The notes below the pieces were generated by a model, which was not told the origin of the DNA, searched no databases, and saw only the letters and a list, made by a program, of their open reading frames with translations. Below, piece by piece: positions 282 to 8,823 of a stretch of 8,823 nt of DNA (position 1 is the first letter of the stretch; each line of letters starts with the position of its first letter). This DNA is from a virus (taxonomy: Duplodnaviria > Heunggongvirae > Uroviricota > Caudoviricetes): the IMG/VR virus record IMGVR_UViG_2713896788_000033. The stretch is one strand, 5' to 3'. The translations under genes were made by a program, and so were the position numbers.

Positions 282-881
282 ATGCGTAAATTATGTGCTG
301 TTATTTTGTCCGCAGTAGTCTGGCAGGTCGCCGCTGCTACGCCAGCGAGTGCAGCAGAACATCAGTCCACGCTGAGCGCGGGGTATCTCCATGCCTCGAC
401 GAACGTTCCCGGTAGTGATGATCTGAACGGGATTAACGTGAAATACCGTTATGAGTTTATGGACGCGCTGGGGCTGATTACGTCCTTCAGTTATGCCAAT
501 GCTGAGGATGAGCAAAAAACGCGCTACAGCGATACCCGCTGGCATGAAGATTCCGTGCGTAACCGCTGGTTCAGCGTGATGGCGGGGCCGTCTGTACGCG
601 TGAATGAATGGTTCAGCGCGTATGCGATGGCGGGTGTGGCTTACAGCCGTGTGTCGACTTTCTACGGGGATTATCTCCGCGTAACTGACAACAAGGGGAA
701 AACGCACGATGTGCTGACCGGAAGTGATGACGGTCGCCACAGCAACACGTCTCTGGCGTGGGGGGCTGGCGTGCAGTTTAACCCGACCGAATCCGTGACC
801 ATTGACCTTGCTTATGAAGGTTCCGGTAGTGGCGACTGGCGATCGGATGCATTTATTGTTGGTATCGGATACCGTTTCTGA
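282..881 (+). CDS. lom: Lom-family (Ail/PagC/OmpX-like) outer membrane beta-barrel protein, a lambdoid prophage moron
   Basis: 199-aa ORF with SD GAGAGG at 271-276. N-terminal signal peptide MRKLCAVILSAVVWQVAAATPASA|AE. Alternating aromatic/hydrophobic beta-strand pattern and C-terminal ...IVGIGYRF typical of small outer-membrane barrels. Position immediately after J matches lambda lom. Confidence 0.9.
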   Translation: MRKLCAVILSAVVWQVAAATPASAAEHQSTLSAGYLHASTNVPGSDDLNGINVKYRYEFMDALGLITSFSYANAEDEQKTRYSDTRWHEDSVRNRWFSVMAGPSVRVNEWFSAYAMAGVAYSRVSTFYGDYLRVTDNKGKTHDVLTGSDDGRHSNTSLAWGAGVQFNPTESVTIDLAYEGSGSGDWRSDAFIVGIGYRF

Positions 882-1349: not shown

Positions 1350-1381
1350 TTCTGATTAGCCAGGTAACACAGTGTTATGAC

Positions 1382-1409
1382 AGCCCGCCGGTTCAGGCGG
1401 GCTTTTTTG
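1382..1409 (+). terminator. Terminator-like hairpin immediately upstream of stf
   Basis: AGCCCGCC (1382-1389), loop GGTTCAG, GGCGGGCT (1397-1404), then TTTTTT (1404-1409). It ends about 10 bp before the stf SD and start. Confidence 0.5.
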
Positions 1410-1419
1410 TGGGGTGAAT

Positions 1420-4335
1420 ATGGCAGTAAAGATTTCAGGTGTACTGAAAGACGGCACAGGAAAACCGGTAGAGAACTGCACCATTCAACTGAAAGCCAGA
1501 CGTAACAGCGCCACGGTGGTGGTGAACACGGTGGCCTCTGAAAATCCGGATGAAGCCGGTCGTTACAGCATGGACGTTGAGTACGGTCAGTACAGCGTNA
1601 TTCTGTTGGTGGAAGGNTTCCCGCCGTCACATGCCGGGACCATCACCGTGTATGAAGATTCTCAACCCGGTACGCTGAATGATTTTCTTGGTGCCATGAC
1701 TGAGGATGATGTCCGTCCGGAGGCACTGCGCCGTTTTGAGCTGATGGTGGAAGAGGTGGCGCGTAACGCGTCCGCGGTGGCACAGAACACGGCAGCCGCG
1801 AAGAAGTCAGCCAGCGATGCCAGCACATCAGCCCGTGAGGCGGCAACCCATGCGACTGATGCTGCGGACTCAGCACGCGCAGCCAGCACGTCAGCCGGAC
1901 AGGCCGCGTCGTCGGCTCAGTCAGCGTCTTCCAGCGCAGGAACGGCATCAACAAAGGCTACTGAAGCATCAAAAAGTGCTGCCGCTGCAGAGTCCTCAAA
2001 AAGCGCGGCGGCTACCAGTGCCGGTGCGGCGAAAACGTCAGAAACGAATGCGGCAGTGTCACAACAATCAGCCGCCACTTCTGCATCCACCGCGACCACG
2101 AAAGCGTCAGAAGCTGCCTCCTCAGCCAGGGATGCGTCGGCTTCAAAAGAGGCGGCAAAATCATCAGAAACGAGCGCAGCCTCGAGCGCCAGTAGTGCAG
2201 CCTCCTCGGCAACGGCGGCAGGCAATTCCGCGAAGGCGGCCAAAACGTCTGAGACAAACGCTAAGTCCTCTGAAACGGCAGCAGAACAGAGTGCCTCCGC
2301 AGCAGCAGGCTCAAAAACAGCGGCTGCATTATCTGCCAGTGCCGCGTCAACAAGTGCCGGGCAGGCCTCAGCCAGTGCCACCGCCGCCGGAAAATCGGCA
2401 GAAAGTGCCGCATCGTCTGCTTCAACAGCCACAACGAAGGCTGGCGAAGCCACTGAACAGGCCAGCGCAGCAGCGAGTTCTGCTTCCGCAGCGAAGACAT
2501 CCGAAACGAACGCGAAAGCGTCGGAAACCAGCGCAGAATCCTCAAAAACGGCTGCCGCATCGTCAGCCAGTTCGGCGGCGTCATCGGCATCATCTGCGTC
2601 TGCTTCAAAAGATGAGGCGACCAGACAAGCGTCAGCAGCGAAGAGCAGCGCCACGACGGCATCCACGAAGGCGACAGAGGCAGCTGGTAGTGCGACGGCA
2701 GCAGCTCAGAGCAAAAGTACGGCGGAATCTGCAGCAACGCGCGCTGAGACAGCGGCAAAACGGGCAGAGGATATTGCATCCGCCGTGGCGCTTGAGGATG
2801 CGAGCACGACGAAAAAGGGGATAGTACAGCTCAGCAGTGCGACTAACAGCACTTCCGAGTCACTGGCGGCAACGCCAAAAGCCGTTAAGGCCGCGTATGA
2901 GCTGGCTAACGGGAAATACACCGCACAGGATGCAACGACAGCACAGAAAGGGATAGTTCAGCTTAGCAACGCGACCAACAGCACATCTGAAATGCTGGCG
3001 GCAACGCCAAAGTCGGTAAAGGCAGCCTATGACCTTGCTAACGGGAAATATACTGCTCAGGACGCTACGACAGCACAAAAAGGAATTGTCCAGCTCAGTA
3101 GTGCAACCAACAGCGCATCTGAAACGCTTGCCGCGACACCGAAAGCAGTGAAAGCAGCTAATGATAATGCGAATGGTCGGGTACCTTCTGCCCGTAAGGT
3201 GAATGGTAAGGCGCTTTCATCGGATATAACACTGACGCCGAAAGATATTGGTACGCTTAACTCAACAACAATGTCATTCAGCGGTGGTGCTGGTTGGTTC
3301 AAATTAGCAACGGTAACCATGCCACAGGCGAGTTCTGTTGTTTCAATTACGTTGATTGGTGGCGCGGGATTTAACGTGGGGTCACCTCAACAGGCAGGTA
3401 TATCTGAACTTGTTTTGCGTGCAGGTAATGGTAATCCGAAGGGGATTACTGGTGCTTTATGGCAGCGCACATCGACAGGGTTTACAAATTTTGCCTGGGT
3501 CAATACATCTGGTGATACTTACGATATTTACGTTGCAATCGGAAATTATGCGACTGGTGTAAATATTCAATGGGATTATACCAGTAATGCCAGCGTGACG
3601 ATTCATACGTCACCAGCATATTCTGCTAATAAGCCGGAAGGGTTAACGGACGGTACAGTTTATTCACTCTATACGCCATCAGAGCAGTTTTATCCGCCTG
3701 GCGCACCAATCCCGTGGCCATCAGATACCGTTCCGTCTGGCTATGCCCTGATGCAGGGGCAGACTTTTGACAAATCTGCATACCCGAAACTTGCAGCCGC
3801 TTATCCGTCAGGCGTGATCCCTGATATGCGTGGCTGGACGATTAAGGGCAAACCTGCCAGTGGTCGGGCCGTATTGTCTCAGGAACAGGACGGCATTAAA
3901 TCGCACACCCACAGCGCCAGCGCATCCAGTACGGATTTGGGGACGAAAACCACATCGTCGTTTGATTACGGCACTAAATCCACGAATAACACCGGGGCGC
4001 ACACGCACAGTGTGAGCGGTACAGCCGCAAGTGCCGGAAACCATACTCATAGTGTCACAGGCGCATCAGCAGTCAGCCAGTGGTCACAAAATGGGTCAGT
4101 ACATAAGGTAGTGTCTGCGGCCAGTGTGAATACAAGTGCTGCAGGAGCGCACACTCATAGTGTCAGCGGCACAGCTGCATCTGCAGGTGCTCACGCACAT
4201 ACTGTCGGTATTGGTGCTCATACGCACTCTGTTGCGATTGGCTCACATGGACACACCATCACCGTTAACGCTGCGGGTAACGCGGAAAACACTGTCAAAA
4301 ACATCGCATTTAACTACATTGTGAGGCTTGCATAA
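1420..4335 (+). CDS. stf: Side tail fibre protein (lambda Stf-like; distal part related to T4 gp37-type fibres)
   Basis: The track ORF starts at GTG 1414, but ATG 1420 preceded by GGGGTG is the likelier start. Conserved N-terminal domain [16 protein letters not shown]... Long Ala/Ser/Thr-rich low-complexity shaft. Three tandem 44-aa repeats [44 protein letters not shown]-terminal His-rich HxH repeats and terminal ...[22 protein letters not shown]. Contains ambiguous bases at 1599 and 1617. Stop TAA 4333-4335 overlaps the tfa start. Confidence 0.9.
2815..3210 (+). repeat. Three in-frame tandem repeats of 132 bp (44 aa) inside stf (phage tail fibre repeat)
   Basis: Repeat units begin at 2815, 2947 and 3079, a period of exactly 132 bp. 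Peptide units are [88 protein letters not shown] and [28 protein letters not shown]..., the third diverging after about 3160. Confidence 0.9.
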
Positions 4336-4916
4336 TGGCATTCAGAATGAGTGAACAACCACGGACCATAAAAATTTATAATCTGCTGACCGGAACTAAT
4401 GAATTTATTGGTGAAGGTGACGCATATATTCCGCCTCATACAGGTCTGCCAGCAAACAGTACCTATATTGCACCGCCAGATATTCCGGCTGGCTTCGTGG
4501 CTGTTTTCAACAGTGATGAGTCATCGTGGCATCTCGTTGAAGATCATCGGGGTAAAACGGTTTATGACGTGGCTTCCGGCGACGCGTTATTTATTTCTGA
4601 ACTCGGCTCATTACCGGAAAATGTTACCTGGTTATCGCCGGAAGGGGAGTTTCAGAAGTGGAACGGCACAGCCTGGGTGAAAGATGCAGAAGCAGAAAAA
4701 CTGTTCCGGATCCGGGAGGCGGAAGAAACAAAAAACAGCCTGATGCAGGTAGCCAGTGAGCATATTGCGCCACTTCAGGATGCTGTAGATCTGGAAATCG
4801 CAACGGAGGAAGAAGCCTCATTGCTGGAAGCCTGGAAAAAGTATCGGGTGTTGCTGAACCGTGTTGATACATCAACTGCACCTGATATTGAGTGGCCTGT
4901 AATACCTGAAGTTTAA
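4335..4916 (+). CDS. tfa: Tail fibre assembly protein (Tfa; chaperone for the Stf tip, T4 gp38-related C-terminal domain)
   Basis: 193-aa ORF whose ATG (4335-4337) overlaps the stf stop as TAATG, the classic stf-tfa coupling. Its C-terminal segment ...[37 protein letters not shown] is the conserved Tfa C-terminal domain and recurs in the fragment at 8577-8696. Confidence 0.85.
4754..4874 (+). repeat. Left copy of an approximately 120-bp direct repeat (tfa 3' end) bracketing the cargo
   Basis: Hand alignment of 4754-4874 against 8577-8696 gives about 13 mismatches in 120 bp with no indels (about 89% identity). Confidence 0.8.
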
Positions 4917-4921
4917 AATAA

Positions 4922-4947
4922 AAGCCCGCTTAAAATATCGCGGGCTT
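4922..4947. terminator. Hairpin between convergent tfa (+) and katN-like (-) genes; possible bidirectional terminator
   Basis: GCCCGC (4924-4929), 10-nt loop, GCGGGC (4940-4945). It is flanked by an A-run on the 5' side (4914-4922), which is a U-run for the minus-strand transcript, and only a short TT on the + side. Confidence 0.45.
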
Positions 4948-5035
4948 CGAAATATAAATGTATTTTCAGAGGCTAGAGCTTAGGATATCTCAGCGGCAAT
5001 TAACTTATGAGGGATAGCTAAATACCAGAAGATAA

Positions 5036-5926
5036 TTAGTTTTTACTATTTATCTTTGTTTGTGGTTCTCCTTCAGCAAGCTCAGCGCCAGTGACAGGAT
5101 TGATGTCTTCATGGGATTTCAACCTTGTTGCCATAGCTTTTATCATAGCTTCTTGCTTGGTCGAAAGATTTATCGAGGCCTTCCCATCCCCACCGTCAAC
5201 CGCTGAAACTGGATCGGAAACATAGTCAAAGTTTTCATCACTGTTCCAACTACCTCTGACGTCTTCACCTTCTGACATGTTGTAATATACGTTTTTGTAT
5301 TTCTCAAGTGGTGGTAATTTTCCTGGTGGAAAGGTGTTACGAATTGAATGTAATGCTTTTTCAAATGAAAGCATGTGTGCTGCTTCCCGGGTCATTAAAA
5401 ATGCCAGAGTGTCTTTTACTCCAGGATCATCAGTAACATTAATGAGACGTTCGTAAATGATCTTTGCCCGAGCTTCAGCTGCAATATTTGAACGAAGATC
5501 GGCCGTGACTTCGCCAATAGTATCAACATAAGCTGCAGTCCAGGGTACTCCAGCTGAATTAGTTAATGCTGGGCCTCCTCCGTAGAGGAGAGAAGTTATA
5601 TGGCTATCATTGCCATTTTGAGTTAAGGAACGGTAAAGCTCAGCTTCATTCTCAGTTCCTTCAGCAAGTGCTCCTTTTGCACCTTTGTTGAGCATACCAA
5701 CAAGAGAACCAATAATTTCGAGATGACTTAGTTCTTCTGTTGCTATGTCCATCAGCATATCCCTTCGGCCTGCATCTTCATCACTTAAGCCTTGAGTGAA
5801 GTATCGGCATGCTGCTGCAAGCTCACCCTGTGGCCCACCGAATTGTTCTAAGAGTAGATTAGCCAAGCCTGGGTTTGGCTCACTTACACGTACTGTATAT
5901 TGAAGTTTTTTCACGTGTCTAAACAT
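5036..5926 (-). CDS. katN: Manganese (non-haem) catalase, KatN-like
   Basis: 296-aa ORF with a strong SD (GAGGAGG, reverse complement of 5930-5936) 4 nt before the ATG. N-terminus MFRHVKKLQYTVRVSEPNPGLANLLLEQFGGPQGELAAACRYF and two ExxH motifs (TEELSHLE, TREAAHML) match the dimanganese-site signature of the Mn-catalase family. It is the last gene of a yciG-yciF-yciE-katN arrangement like the one known in Salmonella. Confidence 0.8.
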   Translation of the reverse strand: MFRHVKKLQYTVRVSEPNPGLANLLLEQFGGPQGELAAACRYFTQGLSDEDAGRRDMLMDIATEELSHLEIIGSLVGMLNKGAKGALAEGTENEAELYRSLTQNGNDSHITSLLYGGGPALTNSAGVPWTAAYVDTIGEVTADLRSNIAAEARAKIIYERLINVTDDPGVKDTLAFLMTREAAHMLSFEKALHSIRNTFPPGKLPPLEKYKNVYYNMSEGEDVRGSWNSDENFDYVSDPVSAVDGGDGKASINLSTKQEAMIKAMATRLKSHEDINPVTGAELAEGEPQTKINSKN

Positions 5927-5944
5927 AATGCCTCCTCAAAAGAA

Positions 5945-6451
5945 TTATTTTTTGGCTTCAACTCCATCAATTTCAGATCTGACCATGAATTGCTCAGTGG
6001 TGTCAGGAATATGGTTAAGAAGCCATTCAGCCATTTGTTTTTCTTCATTAAGAATTGCTTCAATAATGGGTACTGAAGCTGTATCACCCGCATTTTTGGC
6101 TGCTGCGAGAAGAGATGTGTAACACGCAATTTCAAATTGTTCGAACACATAGCCACTGATCGAACCTTTGACAATTTCATCAGATGGAAAAATTCCACCA
6201 ATGGATTGTCCAAACGCGGCCATTTTACTCATAGAGTCTTTAATGACAGAGCGCGAAATATTATTACGATCAAGTATGCTTTCAAGCTGTGAAAGCTGGT
6301 TCTTTGTTTCGCTAATGTGCTGCTCAATTCTGGAACGTAACTCAGGATAGTTTTCTATCCGGCTGGCCATAGACTCAAGCATTTTTTCAGCTTGTTTTTC
6401 CATCGCATGTGCATCACGAAGCCAGTCATGGTAATGTTCAATTCTATTCAT
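5945..6451 (-). CDS. yciE: DUF892 ferritin-like stress protein, YciE-like
   Basis: 168-aa ORF with SD AGGA upstream (reverse complement of about 6456-6462). N-terminus MNRIEHYHDWLRDAHAMEKQAEKML carries the DUF892 motif (D-x-[YH]-x-[AM]-E-K-Q). Gene order matches yciGFE. Confidence 0.8.
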   Translation of the reverse strand: MNRIEHYHDWLRDAHAMEKQAEKMLESMASRIENYPELRSRIEQHISETKNQLSQLESILDRNNISRSVIKDSMSKMAAFGQSIGGIFPSDEIVKGSISGYVFEQFEIACYTSLLAAAKNAGDTASVPIIEAILNEEKQMAEWLLNHIPDTTEQFMVRSEIDGVEAKK

Positions 6452-6487
6452 AATCTGTTTATCCTAAAAGAAATTGAAGTCTATAGT

Positions 6488-6988
6488 TCAGGAGTTATCC
6501 TGAGCTTTTTTATTAACGTTATTAAATGCCAGGTCTGTTAATTTGACATCAGTAGCTTTTTCCTCTTCCAGTGTTTCTTTCAGGAGTTTAGCCGCTTTTT
6601 TATATCCTAATTGCTCAGCGAGTGTTACCAAAGTGCCATAACTGGCAATTTCATAGTGCTCTACTTTTTGTGCTGCAGCAATCAATGCAGCATCACGTAC
6701 TTCATTTTTATCAGTGCTTTCAATTACCTCATTCGCCTCTTCGATAAGTCCTTCCATTGCGGCACACTTAATTCTTTTCAATTTAAGACCATCTTCAGAA
6801 TCAACAACCTGATCGATGCGTTCAATTTGACCATGTGTCTCATCAAGATGTGACTGAAAAGCAGCGGTTAATTTATCACTATATGCAGAGCGACTAAGTT
6901 TAGACAGTGCCTTTGTTAGTTGTTTCTCAGCGCTGTATGTATCCGATAATAAGTGGATGAAGATATCTTCAACAGATTTAATTTGCAT
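6488..6988 (-). CDS. yciF: DUF892 ferritin-like stress protein, YciF-like
   Basis: The track ORF starts at GTG 6994 (MIMQIK...), but ATG 6988 preceded by GGAG with a 5-nt spacer is the likelier start (MQIKSVEDIFIHLLSDTYSAEKQLTKAL...). It carries the DUF892 motif LSDTYSAEKQ and is a paralogue of the adjacent YciE-like gene. Confidence 0.8.
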   Translation of the reverse strand: MQIKSVEDIFIHLLSDTYSAEKQLTKALSKLSRSAYSDKLTAAFQSHLDETHGQIERIDQVVDSEDGLKLKRIKCAAMEGLIEEANEVIESTDKNEVRDAALIAAAQKVEHYEIASYGTLVTLAEQLGYKKAAKLLKETLEEEKATDVKLTDLAFNNVNKKAQDNS

Positions 6989-7006
6989 AATCACTCCAGA
7001 GTTTTC

Positions 7007-7030
7007 ACTGCGAGCCCGTAGGCTCGCAGT
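7007..7030 (-). promoter_or_regulatory. Perfect 10-bp stem / 4-nt loop hairpin in the yciG-yciF intercistronic region
   Basis: ACTGCGAGCC (7007-7016), loop CGTA, GGCTCGCAGT (7021-7030). No U-run follows on the transcribed (minus) strand, so it looks like an intra-operon processing or stability element or a partial attenuator, not a full terminator. Confidence 0.5.
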
Positions 7031-7066
7031 TAGCTTCAGTTATTCACGAATGTAGGGGGTGATAAA

Positions 7067-7249
7067 TTAAGAGTCAGATTTACGGCCGCCACCATGGCTA
7101 TTCTGACCACCTTTTTTCCCTGCTTCTGATGCTCTTTGTGGATCGTTTTTAAAATTACCGCCACTATGTTGGCCGCCTTTACGACCAGCGTCAGAAGCTT
7201 TTTGTCGATCTTCAGCGAAATTACCTGCACCGCCACGATGTTCGGTCAT
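7067..7249 (-). CDS. yciG: KGG-repeat general stress protein, YciG-like
   Basis: 60-aa Gly/Lys-rich ORF MTEHRGGAGNFAEDRQKASDAGRKGGQHSGGNFKNDPQRASEAGKKGGQNSHGGGRKSDS with two KGG-type repeats (GRKGGQHSGGNF, GKKGGQNSHGG). SD GAGGAGAA (reverse complement of 7255-7262) precedes the ATG. First gene of the operon. Confidence 0.75.
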   Translation of the reverse strand: MTEHRGGAGNFAEDRQKASDAGRKGGQHSGGNFKNDPQRASEAGKKGGQNSHGGGRKSDS

Positions 7250-7272
7250 ATCATTTCTCCTCTGATTTTCAA

Positions 7273-7299
7273 ATTGTAAATAACATGTGCCTTGTCAGC
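7273..7299 (-). promoter_or_regulatory. Candidate promoter for the yciG-like operon (minus strand)
   Basis: On the minus strand: -35-like CTGACA (reverse complement of 7294-7299), about 15 bp spacer, -10-like TACAAT (reverse complement of 7273-7278), about 25 nt upstream of the yciG ATG. The spacer is short, so a stationary-phase sigma-factor-type promoter with a degenerate -35 is plausible. Prediction by eye only. Confidence 0.3.
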
Positions 7300-7746
7300 A
7301 CCCAATTAACTCTAGTAACAAATAAGAAAGTGTCAAATAAGAGATTGGTATGCGCATCTTAATGTGAGAAATAGCAATTGTAAAAATGTGTACTCAGTGA
7401 GTATAATCTGTTGATATCTTGGTGATTAACGGAAAGTTTAGGTTGTAACTCAAAAGATTAATAAATCTAAATTTACATTTCTATATCTTTTGATGTGTAT
7501 GGCGTTGTTTTTCTCAATCAGAACATTCTAAAAAATAATTTAATTACACGGCGGTAGTTGTTAATGTTTTTACGACTCTTCCTAATGAAGTCTGTTTCTT
7601 GGATAAATAGAGAAATTTTATCTTAAGGACTAATTACAAAAACATCTATATAGCCACAGGAATCATTATTGTACTTAACTACAATATTTGAGAGTAAAAA
7701 TTAAACCGCAGACACGGCGTATGCAAGAACGTGCTGCGGTTGGATG

Positions 7747-8415
7747 CTATTTTTTCCCTGAAGCGGAAAACATTACTACAGTACCTTGAACCTTGGTTTT
7801 AACATTCTCGAAATGCTCTGAGAGTATATGTGTTAAGCCTTCTTCGGAATCTTTTGTGTTTGAAAAGATGCCTTTCTGATTGTAAATGCGCATCAGTTTT
7901 TGACCGAAGCTATTGTGCACAACTCCATCGCCAAGAATTGTGGCTCCGTATAGAGTTCCATCGTCAGTTAAGGCCTGCGCCGCATTGCGTATTACACAGC
8001 TTTTTGTAGATATATTTCCAGGCAGGCAGTGAAGAAGGTAAAACATGGAAATGGAATCAAATTGACCATGTAACGCCGCGGGATAAGGTTCAAAAACATC
8101 ATGGCTAATTTTATGTTTAATTTTTGATTCCCCAGCCCTTGTAGATGCCGCGTTCAGGCTAGCTTCGTTCAAATCCATTAAAGATATCAGACTACTCTCA
8201 GGTACGTGAGTAAGGTAAAACCCAGTTCCAACACCAATATCCAGATGGTTGTTACCTAAATGTTCCAGAAAGTGTGGAAGAAGGTGTTCCTTTGTAGGAC
8301 ATCCCCATGCAAGACGATTTGATACTCCCAAAACCCACCAGTCATAAAGCTTTAGGGTAAGTGGTGTGTAAATTTTAGCCCCATCATCTGTGTTTTTTTT
8401 CATTAATTTCACCAT
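7747..8415 (-). CDS. Class I SAM-dependent methyltransferase (orphan; target unknown)
   Basis: 222-aa ORF; the likelier start is the internal ATG (reverse complement of 8401-8403), which has a GGTGA SD, giving MKKNTDDGAK... Rossmann motif I HLDIGVGTGFYL (hh-D-h-G-x-G-x-G), an acidic residue after beta-2 (SLMDLNE) and a DDGTLY motif typical of small-molecule/RNA class I methyltransferases. From memory, a methyltransferase gene (ybcY) lies between two tfa genes in E. coli K-12 prophage DLP12; this arrangement is similar, but the homology is unverified. Confidence 0.6.
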   Translation of the reverse strand: MVKLMKKNTDDGAKIYTPLTLKLYDWWVLGVSNRLAWGCPTKEHLLPHFLEHLGNNHLDIGVGTGFYLTHVPESSLISLMDLNEASLNAASTRAGESKIKHKISHDVFEPYPAALHGQFDSISMFYLLHCLPGNISTKSCVIRNAAQALTDDGTLYGATILGDGVVHNSFGQKLMRIYNQKGIFSNTKDSEEGLTHILSEHFENVKTKVQGTVVMFSASGKK

Positions 8416-8471
8416 GTTATAGTTTTATTTGTGAATTAAATCAATTATGGCGATGAATTACAAGGGGTTAA

Positions 8472-8720
8472 ATGCTGCCGCAGCATAGCGATATTGAAAT
8501 AGCCTGGTATGCTGCGATACAGCAGGAGCCGAATGGCTGGAAGACCGTCACCACACAGTTCTACATCCAGGAATTCAGTGAGTATATTGCGCCACTGCAG
8601 GATGCTGTAGATCTGGAAATCGCAACGGAGGAAGAAAGATCGTTGCTGGAGGCATGGAATAAATATCGGGTATTGTTGAATCGTGTTGATACATCAGTAG
8701 CTCGTAAGCGTACAGCCTGA
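8472..8720 (+). pseudogene. 3' remnant of a second tail fibre assembly (tfa) gene
   Basis: 82-aa ORF whose C-terminal half ...[38 protein letters not shown] matches the C-terminal domain of the tfa at 4335-4916 (nucleotide similarity 8577-8696 versus 4754-4874). The N-terminal 35 residues show no similarity to the full Tfa and there is no convincing SD, so this is probably a recombination remnant whose ATG is fortuitous. Confidence 0.6.
8577..8696 (+). repeat. Right copy of the approximately 120-bp direct repeat (tfa 3' end)
   Basis: See the left copy: same orientation, same reading frame, similarity ends at ...GTTGATACATCA. Confidence 0.8.
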
Positions 8721-8823
8721 ACCGTCTGGTCAGAATCTGACGAATTAGACAAAGTGGTGCCCACCAAATAAGTAGTGGGAACCAAAGTATCAGATATGCA
8801 GAAAAATGTGACTCCCGGCAGGC

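Follow-up and report, generated by a model that had tools for sequence, protein, structure and literature searches.

A ybcY-type class I S-adenosylmethionine-dependent methyltransferase gene as putative cargo at the tail-fibre end of an Escherichia coli O157:H7 lambda-like prophage

The ybcY gene and its module

The window analysed here, 8,823 nucleotides of a Caudoviricetes record (IMGVR_UViG_2713896788_000033), is the tail end of a lambda-like prophage of Escherichia coli O157:H7. Close to its right-hand end lies an uninterrupted open reading frame (ORF), called at 222 amino acids, which an earlier reading of the DNA without database searches (the sequence-only reading) had described as an orphan methyltransferase gene; its minus-strand orientation is a detail that we add. 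On sequence evidence, the ORF is an intact orthologue of ybcY (b0562) of E. coli K-12. It matches PHROG 2132 ("unknown function") at an E value of 8e-157 over profile positions 1 to 218 of 218, and the full-length match to the YbcY family is accompanied by tfaX/ompT synteny. The annotation of strain Sakai lists it as ECs1656, a "hypothetical protein" in prophage Sp8, with the adjoining tfa fragment as ECs1657; RefSeq names the protein (WP_000239881.1) a "class I SAM-dependent methyltransferase" (SAM, S-adenosylmethionine), while the annotators of phage PhiR26_1 labelled the same gene "putative uncharacterized protein YbcY". The gene is already known, annotated and very common in E. coli prophages, and "orphan" overstates the novelty of a ybcY orthologue that is present in most E. 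coli genomes. Because the ORF is identical (100%) in hundreds of ungapped complete genomes, many of them O157, it is neither an assembly artefact nor a pseudogene here. The true start is probably the second ATG (Met5, ATG at 8403-8401), giving 218 amino acids, since this is where the PHROG profile and each of the 39 aligned homologues start and since the best promoter-like site has its -10 hexamer ending one base before the first ATG. The sequence GGTGA stands just before the Met5 codon.

Similarity to K-12 and to phages starts exactly at position 7700 and stops at 8703, and in this strain the conserved ybcY-tfaX module is bounded on its right by ISEc8. Directly after the ybcY stop codon lies a terminator-like hairpin followed by a T-tract (Table 1); in K-12 and PhiR26_1, the same hairpin is the sole element between the convergent genes tfa and ybcY. 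At the opposite end, a sigma-70 promoter-like site sits in the 56-bp spacer between ybcY and the divergent tfaX, and a consensus scan returned a second candidate, TTAACC-16-CATAAT, at 8471-8444. The map of RpoD holoenzyme binding obtained in K-12 by genomic SELEX (systematic evolution of ligands by exponential enrichment) lists the same hexamers as the first site for ybcY, as well as an H-NS site in the ybcY/tfaX spacer (PMC3946193). Judging from these sites, ybcY would be transcribed from a promoter of its own. The coding sequence is AT-rich, in line with the codon usage noted earlier, with a GC content of 40.7% and a GC content at third codon positions (GC3) of 35%, versus 47 to 55% for the tail genes. 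Altogether, a promoter-like site and a terminator-like hairpin of its own, deviant composition and presence or absence independent of its neighbours support the proposal, already made in the sequence-only reading, that ybcY behaves as prophage cargo, that is, as a "moron".

We also considered the suggestion that the methyltransferase is linked to the neighbouring yciG-like stress operon, and it found no support. The katN/yciE/yciF/yciG-like operon and its AT-rich upstream region form an insertion of ~2.8 kb between the tfa stop codon and the ybcY terminator, a place at which K-12 DLP12, ev243 and PhiR26_1, all without the katN cassette, have only ~30 to 55 bp. The yciG-spacer-ybcY junction was found in 381 of 5,426 complete E. 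coli genomes, versus ~3,840 with ybcY; elsewhere, similarity starts at 7700-7706. Upstream of the yciG-like gene, the spacer at 7250-7699 measures 450 bp at 29% GC and holds several promoter-like sites on both strands, with neither an ORF nor a match in Rfam; presumably, the katN operon is regulated from here by RpoS, OxyR and H-NS. Published limits of this operon are z1924-z1921, with control by RpoS, OxyR and H-NS (PMC5363993). Genes ECs1653-1655 move together in a transcriptome table of Sakai, in which ECs1656 is not listed with them (PMC4940412), and in O111:H8 strains, which lack most of Sp8, ECs1656-63 persist (PMC2713265). The terminator, a distribution independent of the operon and the operon limits given in the literature led us to reject co-transcription with the yciG-like genes. 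Likewise, a functional link between ybcY and the stress operon is not supported by the arrangement of the DNA, because the cassette is a separate insertion with a junction confined to the 381 genomes and is set apart from ybcY by the hairpin terminator and the AT-rich spacer.

Enzyme class, fold and conservation

The encoded protein has the features of a small, single-domain class I SAM methyltransferase, as the sequence-only reading had recognised from its GxGxG motif. Motif I reads LDIGVGTGFYL (D59-I-G61-V-G63-T-G65), and its three glycines, G61, G63 and G65, are invariant in 40 homologues. Four Pfam domains (Methyltransf_12, _23, _25 and _11) were all matched above their gathering cut-offs. 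An AlphaFold2 (AF2) model computed with a 40-sequence alignment (predicted local distance difference test [pLDDT], 90.8; predicted template modelling score [pTM], 0.87) shows seven strands flanked by helices and an N-terminal lid of two helices. In this model, D81, at the position of the acidic residue that contacts the SAM ribose, lies at the end of strand 2 (E76-81), and it is invariant even in a divergent alignment of 79 sequences. A further SAM-site residue, D106 after strand 3, may be assigned by analogy with other class I enzymes. Motif I, the strand-2 acidic residue, the seven-stranded sheet and the profile matches are thus found together, and they support assignment to class I.

Structural comparison with Foldseek placed the R-type phosphatidylethanolamine N-methyltransferase PmtA (8ys9) first (E 9e-12; template modelling [TM] score, 0.61 to 0.65), followed by JHAMT, SgvM and the Plasmodium phosphoethanolamine N-methyltransferases, of which PfPMT and PvPMT are among the top 20. 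The top neighbours all act on a small molecule, a lipid or a natural product, and none is a DNA methyltransferase. The fold fixes the class of the enzyme, a small-molecule or lipid type, and not its substrate.

A regular-expression search of the protein found neither [DNS]PP[YFW] nor PC[QH]; a lone ENV near the C-terminus stands outside any catalytic context. As the sequence-only reading had stated, this protein of 222 amino acids has no target-recognition domain and its gene no endonuclease gene beside it; nor is there any other second domain, and the neighbours are tfa, yciG-like and insertion sequence (IS) genes. PADLOC, which like NCBIfam and the PDB was searched with the single protein and two family profiles, gave only one 14-bit match. 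A DNA methyltransferase was rejected on account of the missing catalytic motifs. The earlier preference for a small-molecule or RNA methyltransferase over a DNA methyltransferase is upheld in its first part by the small-molecule/lipid fold and the absence of motif IV, whereas RNA methylation by YbcY has no specific support.

The family is, to judge from its substitution pattern, under purifying selection. Twelve homologues at 53 to 99% identity have no in-frame stops, and the ratio of nonsynonymous to synonymous substitution rates (dN/dS) is 0.10 to 0.12 where dS is unsaturated. Across 40 sequences (56 to 90% identity), 57 columns are invariant, SAM-site residues among them. Also among them are two blocks specific to the family, one near the N-terminus (Y16..L21..Y24-D-W-W-V-L..N33..W37.C39.T41) and one towards the C-terminus (G157-A-T..G162..N168..Y178-N.K-G-I-F.N186..D189). 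In the 79-sequence alignment (33 to 56% identity), Y24, D81, H129, G157 and D189 are invariant, and 90% or more of the sequences keep Y16, D25, W37, C39, H57, C130 and N186.

Surroundings and distribution of the family

Positions 1350-8823 of the window are 99.97 to 100% identical to complete O157 genomes and correspond to prophage Sp8 of strain Sakai, the counterpart of which in EDL933 is CP-933X (PMC5363993). The features of the window are collected in Table 1. Beyond the window lie genes for an alpha/beta hydrolase and OmpT.

Table 1. Genes and other features located in the 8,823-nucleotide window
Feature	Position	Strand	Basis
lom	282-881	+	
Side tail fibre gene (stf)	1414-4335	+	
tfa, full	4335-4916	+	
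katN/yciE/yciF/yciG-like operon and AT-rich upstream region, ~2.8-kb insertion between tfa stop and ybcY terminator	~4899-7699	-	
Mn-catalase gene katN	5036-5926	-	
yciE-like	5945-6451	-	
yciF-like	6488-6994	-	
yciG-like	7067-7249	-	
Terminator-like hairpin (CCGCAGCACG...CGTGTCTGCGG), then T-tract TTTAATTTTT, directly after ybcY stop	7697-7742	-	
ybcY-type class I SAM-dependent methyltransferase gene (ECs1656, WP_000239881.1)	7747-8415	-	ORF, Pfam, PHROG 2132, K-12 identity, AF2
Sigma-70 promoter-like site, TTGATT (8444-8439)-17 nt-TATAAC (8421-8416), abutting first ATG	8416-8444	-	Sequence; K-12 SELEX hexamers
tfaX-like ORF (ECs1657), C-terminal tail-fibre-assembly fragment with distinct N-terminus, divergent from ybcY	8472-8720	+	PHROG 2341 and tfa PHROGs, K-12 tfaX, Sakai ECs1657, 121-bp repeat
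Left end of ISEc8 (IS66 family), inserted in 3' end of tfaX	8704-8823	+	ISEc8 matches from 8704; Sakai repeat_region maps to 8704

The placement of ybcY between tfa copies agrees with the sequence-only reading, one copy being the full tfa gene and the other the C-terminal fragment tfaX. A 121-bp repeat at 89% identity is common to the 3' end of tfa (4754-4874) and tfaX. The 3' end of tfaX itself has been replaced by ISEc8, leaving an ORF of 82 amino acids with an IS-derived tail versus 101 amino acids in phages. A tail-fibre inversion switch was considered for this arrangement and rejected, as tfaX is direct rather than inverted and an invertase is lacking. A predicted E. coli small RNA candidate, Rfam family IS009, matches the 3' coding end of tfa (4678-4876) at 229 bits, above the gathering cut-off, and tfaX (8495-8698) at 109 bits, just under it; therefore, this "RNA family" coincides with conserved coding sequence for the Tfa C-terminus. 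Within stf, tandem copies of a unit of ~44 amino acids at 2814-3158 are preceded by a low-complexity region rich in Ala, Ser and Thr, and His-rich repeats occur near the C-terminus of the encoded protein.

A scaffold gap of 50 Ns lies at 1300-1349, with single Ns at 1599 and 1617. The 1.3 kb to the left of the gap (lom and the stf N-terminus) match complete O157 genomes at only ~88 to 89%, and the stf 5' end is duplicated across the gap (1006-1299 versus 1397-1686, 89%). Because of this weaker match and this duplication, the window appears to join pieces from two different lambdoid prophages.

The 772-bp module is widespread, being present at 95% identity or more in 3,837 of the 5,426 complete E. 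coli genomes (~70%; median, 1 copy; maximum, 4). Protein identities of 99 to 100% were found in 15 phage records, all of them lambda-like phages of E. coli (ev243, 2G7b, the PhiR series, Turner and Kati). In E. coli genomes and lambda-like phages, the arrangement is always ybcY (reverse) followed by tfaX. An exhaustive search of representative sequences returned 1,321 clusters at E values up to 1e-3, including 197 at 1e-30 or better; named members come from Providencia, Cedecea, Acidobacteria (Edaphobacter) and lichen-forming fungi (Endocarpon, ~46% identity). A scan of species-representative genomes added members across Enterobacterales, Pasteurellaceae, plant-associated Pseudomonas, Xanthomonas/Dyella and Oxalobacteraceae.

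Several members of the family lie on mobile elements of pathogens. Matches occur in 603 Klebsiella plasmid records (~600 K. pneumoniae plasmids), and on the one K. pneumoniae virulence plasmid that was examined, the family gene (locus L090, 2525-3178) stands beside rmpA/rmpD and IS1. On pEA29-like Erwinia plasmids, the family gene adjoins a choline transporter gene (Erwinia pyrifoliae plasmid, locus L091, 5001-5660). The vap pathogenicity island of Rhodococcus equi pVAPA1037 carries a family gene (locus L092, 6001-6714) divergent from a gene for a LysR-family regulator; this copy is without the glycine-rich loop (EVGARSAWF in its place) and, to go by this difference, may be inactive. The recurrent placement of the family on mobile elements of pathogens is suggestive. 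In Klebsiella (L022) and Proteus (L059, L060, L074 and L077-L079) chromosomes, two conserved ORFs upstream of the YbcY homologue resemble, by eye, IbrA/IbrB (3'-phosphoadenosine 5'-phosphosulfate [PAPS]-reductase-like and ParB-like), which hints at another mobile-element context.

Proposed role and comparison with known systems

Taking class, module and conservation together, we think it quite likely that YbcY is a stand-alone class I SAM methyltransferase encoded by an independently transcribed cargo gene, or moron, of lambdoid prophages. In lambda-like phages, the gene occupies the tail-fibre/b-region boundary, in the order stf-tfa-ybcY (reverse)-tfaX-(alpha/beta hydrolase)-ompT-int. In this model, lysogens would produce YbcY from the gene's own sigma-70 promoter, with H-NS probably dampening expression, and not together with the late tail genes. 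The enzyme would methylate, with SAM as donor, an acceptor that is small or lipid-like and that may be bound under the aromatic N-terminal lid (Y16, Y24, D25, W26, W27 and W37) as well as by the conserved insert between strands 5 and 6 (N168, Y178, N179, K181, N186 and D189).

A tentative lead concerns catalysis: an amine or hydroxyl nucleophile could be deprotonated by Y16 and H129, working together as a Tyr/His base in the manner of N-methyltransferases of the phosphoethanolamine or phosphatidylethanolamine type. When the divergent family profile was aligned by hhalign with PfPMT (76% probability, 20% identity), Y16 fell on Y19, Y24 on Y27, D25 on E28 and H129 on H132. The PfPMT sequence used is identical to that of PDB 3uj6, and the Y19F and H132A mutants of PfPMT have been deposited as structures (3ujd and 3ujc). 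The two residues Y19 and H132 reportedly form the catalytic dyad of PfPMT. For RtPmtA, the N-terminal Tyr10 has been proposed as general base, with Tyr17 holding the carboxylate of SAM and a pocket lined by Trp and Phe accommodating the head group (PMC11446283). By this analogy, the Tyr/His pair of YbcY offers a weak lead rather than a classification.

A number of observations weigh against the proposed role or its catalytic detail. In the hhalign match, the phosphate-binding half of PfPMT stayed unaligned, and many members of this superfamily have a His after strand 4. Sequence and profile searches of the PDB reached only the Rossmann core of JHAMT, UbiG, NodS, CysG(N-16)/BelI, ToxA and PmtA (E 1e-3 to 1e-6). 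No curated NCBIfam family was matched, PmtA, RquA and CpaM scoring 15 to 17 bits against cut-offs of 175 to 390 (NF045882 PmtA, 15.6 versus 390; RquA, 16.9 versus 175). The UbiE, UbiG and BioC models matched divergent members only at E 1e-6 to 1e-10 and on the core. The profile and fold searches by which the sequence-only reading had hoped to place the enzyme in a subfamily thus confirmed the methyltransferase fold, and beyond it gave generic core matches under curated cut-offs and no specific subfamily. Among 80 genome loci, analysed by crude ORF calling and blastp clustering, no neighbour was conserved beyond genus-level synteny, and the homologues of Enterobacter and Salmonella have unrelated neighbours; the protein therefore seems to act alone, and its context gives no pathway. 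K-12 has ybcY only as a pseudogene, so laboratory growth does not depend on it. A literature search found no expression or activity data for ybcY and no functional study of it: the gene is mentioned as an ompT neighbour in uropathogenic E. coli (PMC6854850), its deletion mutant had no effect on Hha toxicity (PMC2408971), and it lies within a deleted segment of an ethanol-evolved strain (PMC4559166).

Among narrower or competing accounts of the gene, the strongest is that YbcY methylates a soluble small molecule (for instance an organic acid, a thiol, a quinone-like compound or a heterocyclic toxin) at O, S or C, as a means of detoxification or metabolite editing. YbcY would then compare in role with Tam, TehB/Tpm or Rv0560c and give the lysogen an advantage in certain niches. 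We give this account somewhat less than an even chance. Against it, no model reaches its family cut-off, the neighbourhood of the gene includes no conserved transporter, regulator or pathway gene, and no phenotype has been reported in the literature.

Alternatively, YbcY could be a phospholipid or phosphoethanolamine-type amine N-methyltransferase like PmtA/PEAMT, serving lysogenic conversion by surface remodelling through methylation of phosphatidylethanolamine (PE) or of a phosphoethanolamine (pEtN) decoration of the envelope. Such an activity would match the surrounding outer-membrane cargo genes lom and ompT. It would also fit the best Foldseek match, which is of similar size (8ys9, 207 amino acids), the presence of both Plasmodium enzymes in the top 20, the alignment of Y16, Y24 and H129 with PfPMT and, beside the N-terminal Tyr base and hydrophobic Trp/Phe lid of RtPmtA, the Y/W-rich lid of YbcY. 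To these can be added a weak NCBIfam match to Legionella PmtA (E 0.01) and the choline transporter gene next to one Erwinia plasmid copy. Set against the unaligned substrate-binding half and the scores far under the PmtA cut-off, we regard this account as unlikely. Its more specific form, in which the YbcY family is a new subfamily of amine N-methyltransferases using Tyr16/His129 to methylate PE or envelope pEtN in lysogens, is a long shot. If true, it would make ybcY a previously unrecognised envelope-remodelling conversion gene, and one that travels with lom/ompT in E. coli phages, rmpA/rmpD on Klebsiella virulence plasmids and the vap island in R. equi.

It is also conceivable that ybcY is a functionless remnant of an old prophage in decay, carried along with ompT and still intact here only through chance. 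In K-12, a 2-nucleotide deletion at codons 5-6 has made the gene a pseudogene, truncated protein clusters of 161 amino acids (445 members) and 130 amino acids (30 members) exist, the gene sits in degraded prophages beside IS elements, and no phenotype is known. However, the main cluster of 222 amino acids has 6,589 member sequences, the protein is 99 to 100% conserved in inducible, plaque-forming lambda-like phages, family-wide dN/dS is ~0.1, and the SAM-site residues are invariant, which together make a remnant quite improbable. Least probable of all is a nucleic-acid methyltransferase, whether an orphan DNA enzyme acting against restriction or an rRNA or tRNA methyltransferase, which we regard as improbable in light of the fold neighbours and missing motifs described above.

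Returning to the proposal of a stand-alone cargo methyltransferase, our analysis adds a definition of the module (its boundaries, promoter-like site and terminator), its independence from the katN stress operon, evidence for an intact and selected enzyme of small-molecule type, and the Tyr16/His129 catalytic lead. Any novelty would lie only in the Tyr/His amine-methyltransferase hypothesis and in the association with virulence-linked mobile elements. The same family occurs on Klebsiella virulence plasmids, on Erwinia plasmids and in the vap island of R. equi, so that thousands of genes on mobile elements of pathogens would gain an annotation at once if its activity were defined.

Compared with characterised enzymes, YbcY shares with PmtA (8ys9) and PfPMT (3uj6) a single-domain class I fold of ~210 to 260 amino acids and an N-terminal helical lid, but identity is 15 to 20% and the C-terminal substrate-binding half is not alignable. 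UbiG/UbiE/Coq5 and JHAMT are the best sequence-level PDB matches (E 1e-3 to 3e-5, over the Rossmann core) and resemble YbcY in their "YD..." helix at the N-terminus and in an "LxH" motif that follows strand 4; the match is confined to the core, equivalog models score far under their cut-offs, and there is no quinone-pathway context.

Among genomic counterparts, ybcY (b0562)-tfaX (b0563) of DLP12 in K-12 has 97% nucleotide identity to window positions 7700-8701. The two loci share the order tfa-ybcY (reverse)-tfaX (in full, tfaD-ybcY'-tfaX-appY-ompT in K-12), the promoter hexamers, the terminator hairpin and ompT downstream. They differ in the 2-nucleotide deletion, which in K-12 falls in an ATG-A8 tract, removes the Met5 ATG and shifts the Met1 frame to a stop after nine codons (K-12 locus L009, 8153-8807, versus window 8401-8403). 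Since this tract is prone to slippage, strains could conceivably vary between an on and an off state. Two insertions are further differences: in O157, the 2.8-kb katN cassette separates tfa from ybcY, and ISEc8 lies in tfaX. The lambda-like phages (ev243, 2G7b, PhiR26_1, PhiR29, Turner and Kati), in contrast to the window, have no katN operon, no ISEc8 and a full-length tfaX. They nevertheless encode a protein that is 99 to 100% identical to that of the window, and they have in common the flanking genes tfaX, a 494-amino-acid alpha/beta hydrolase, ompT and int.

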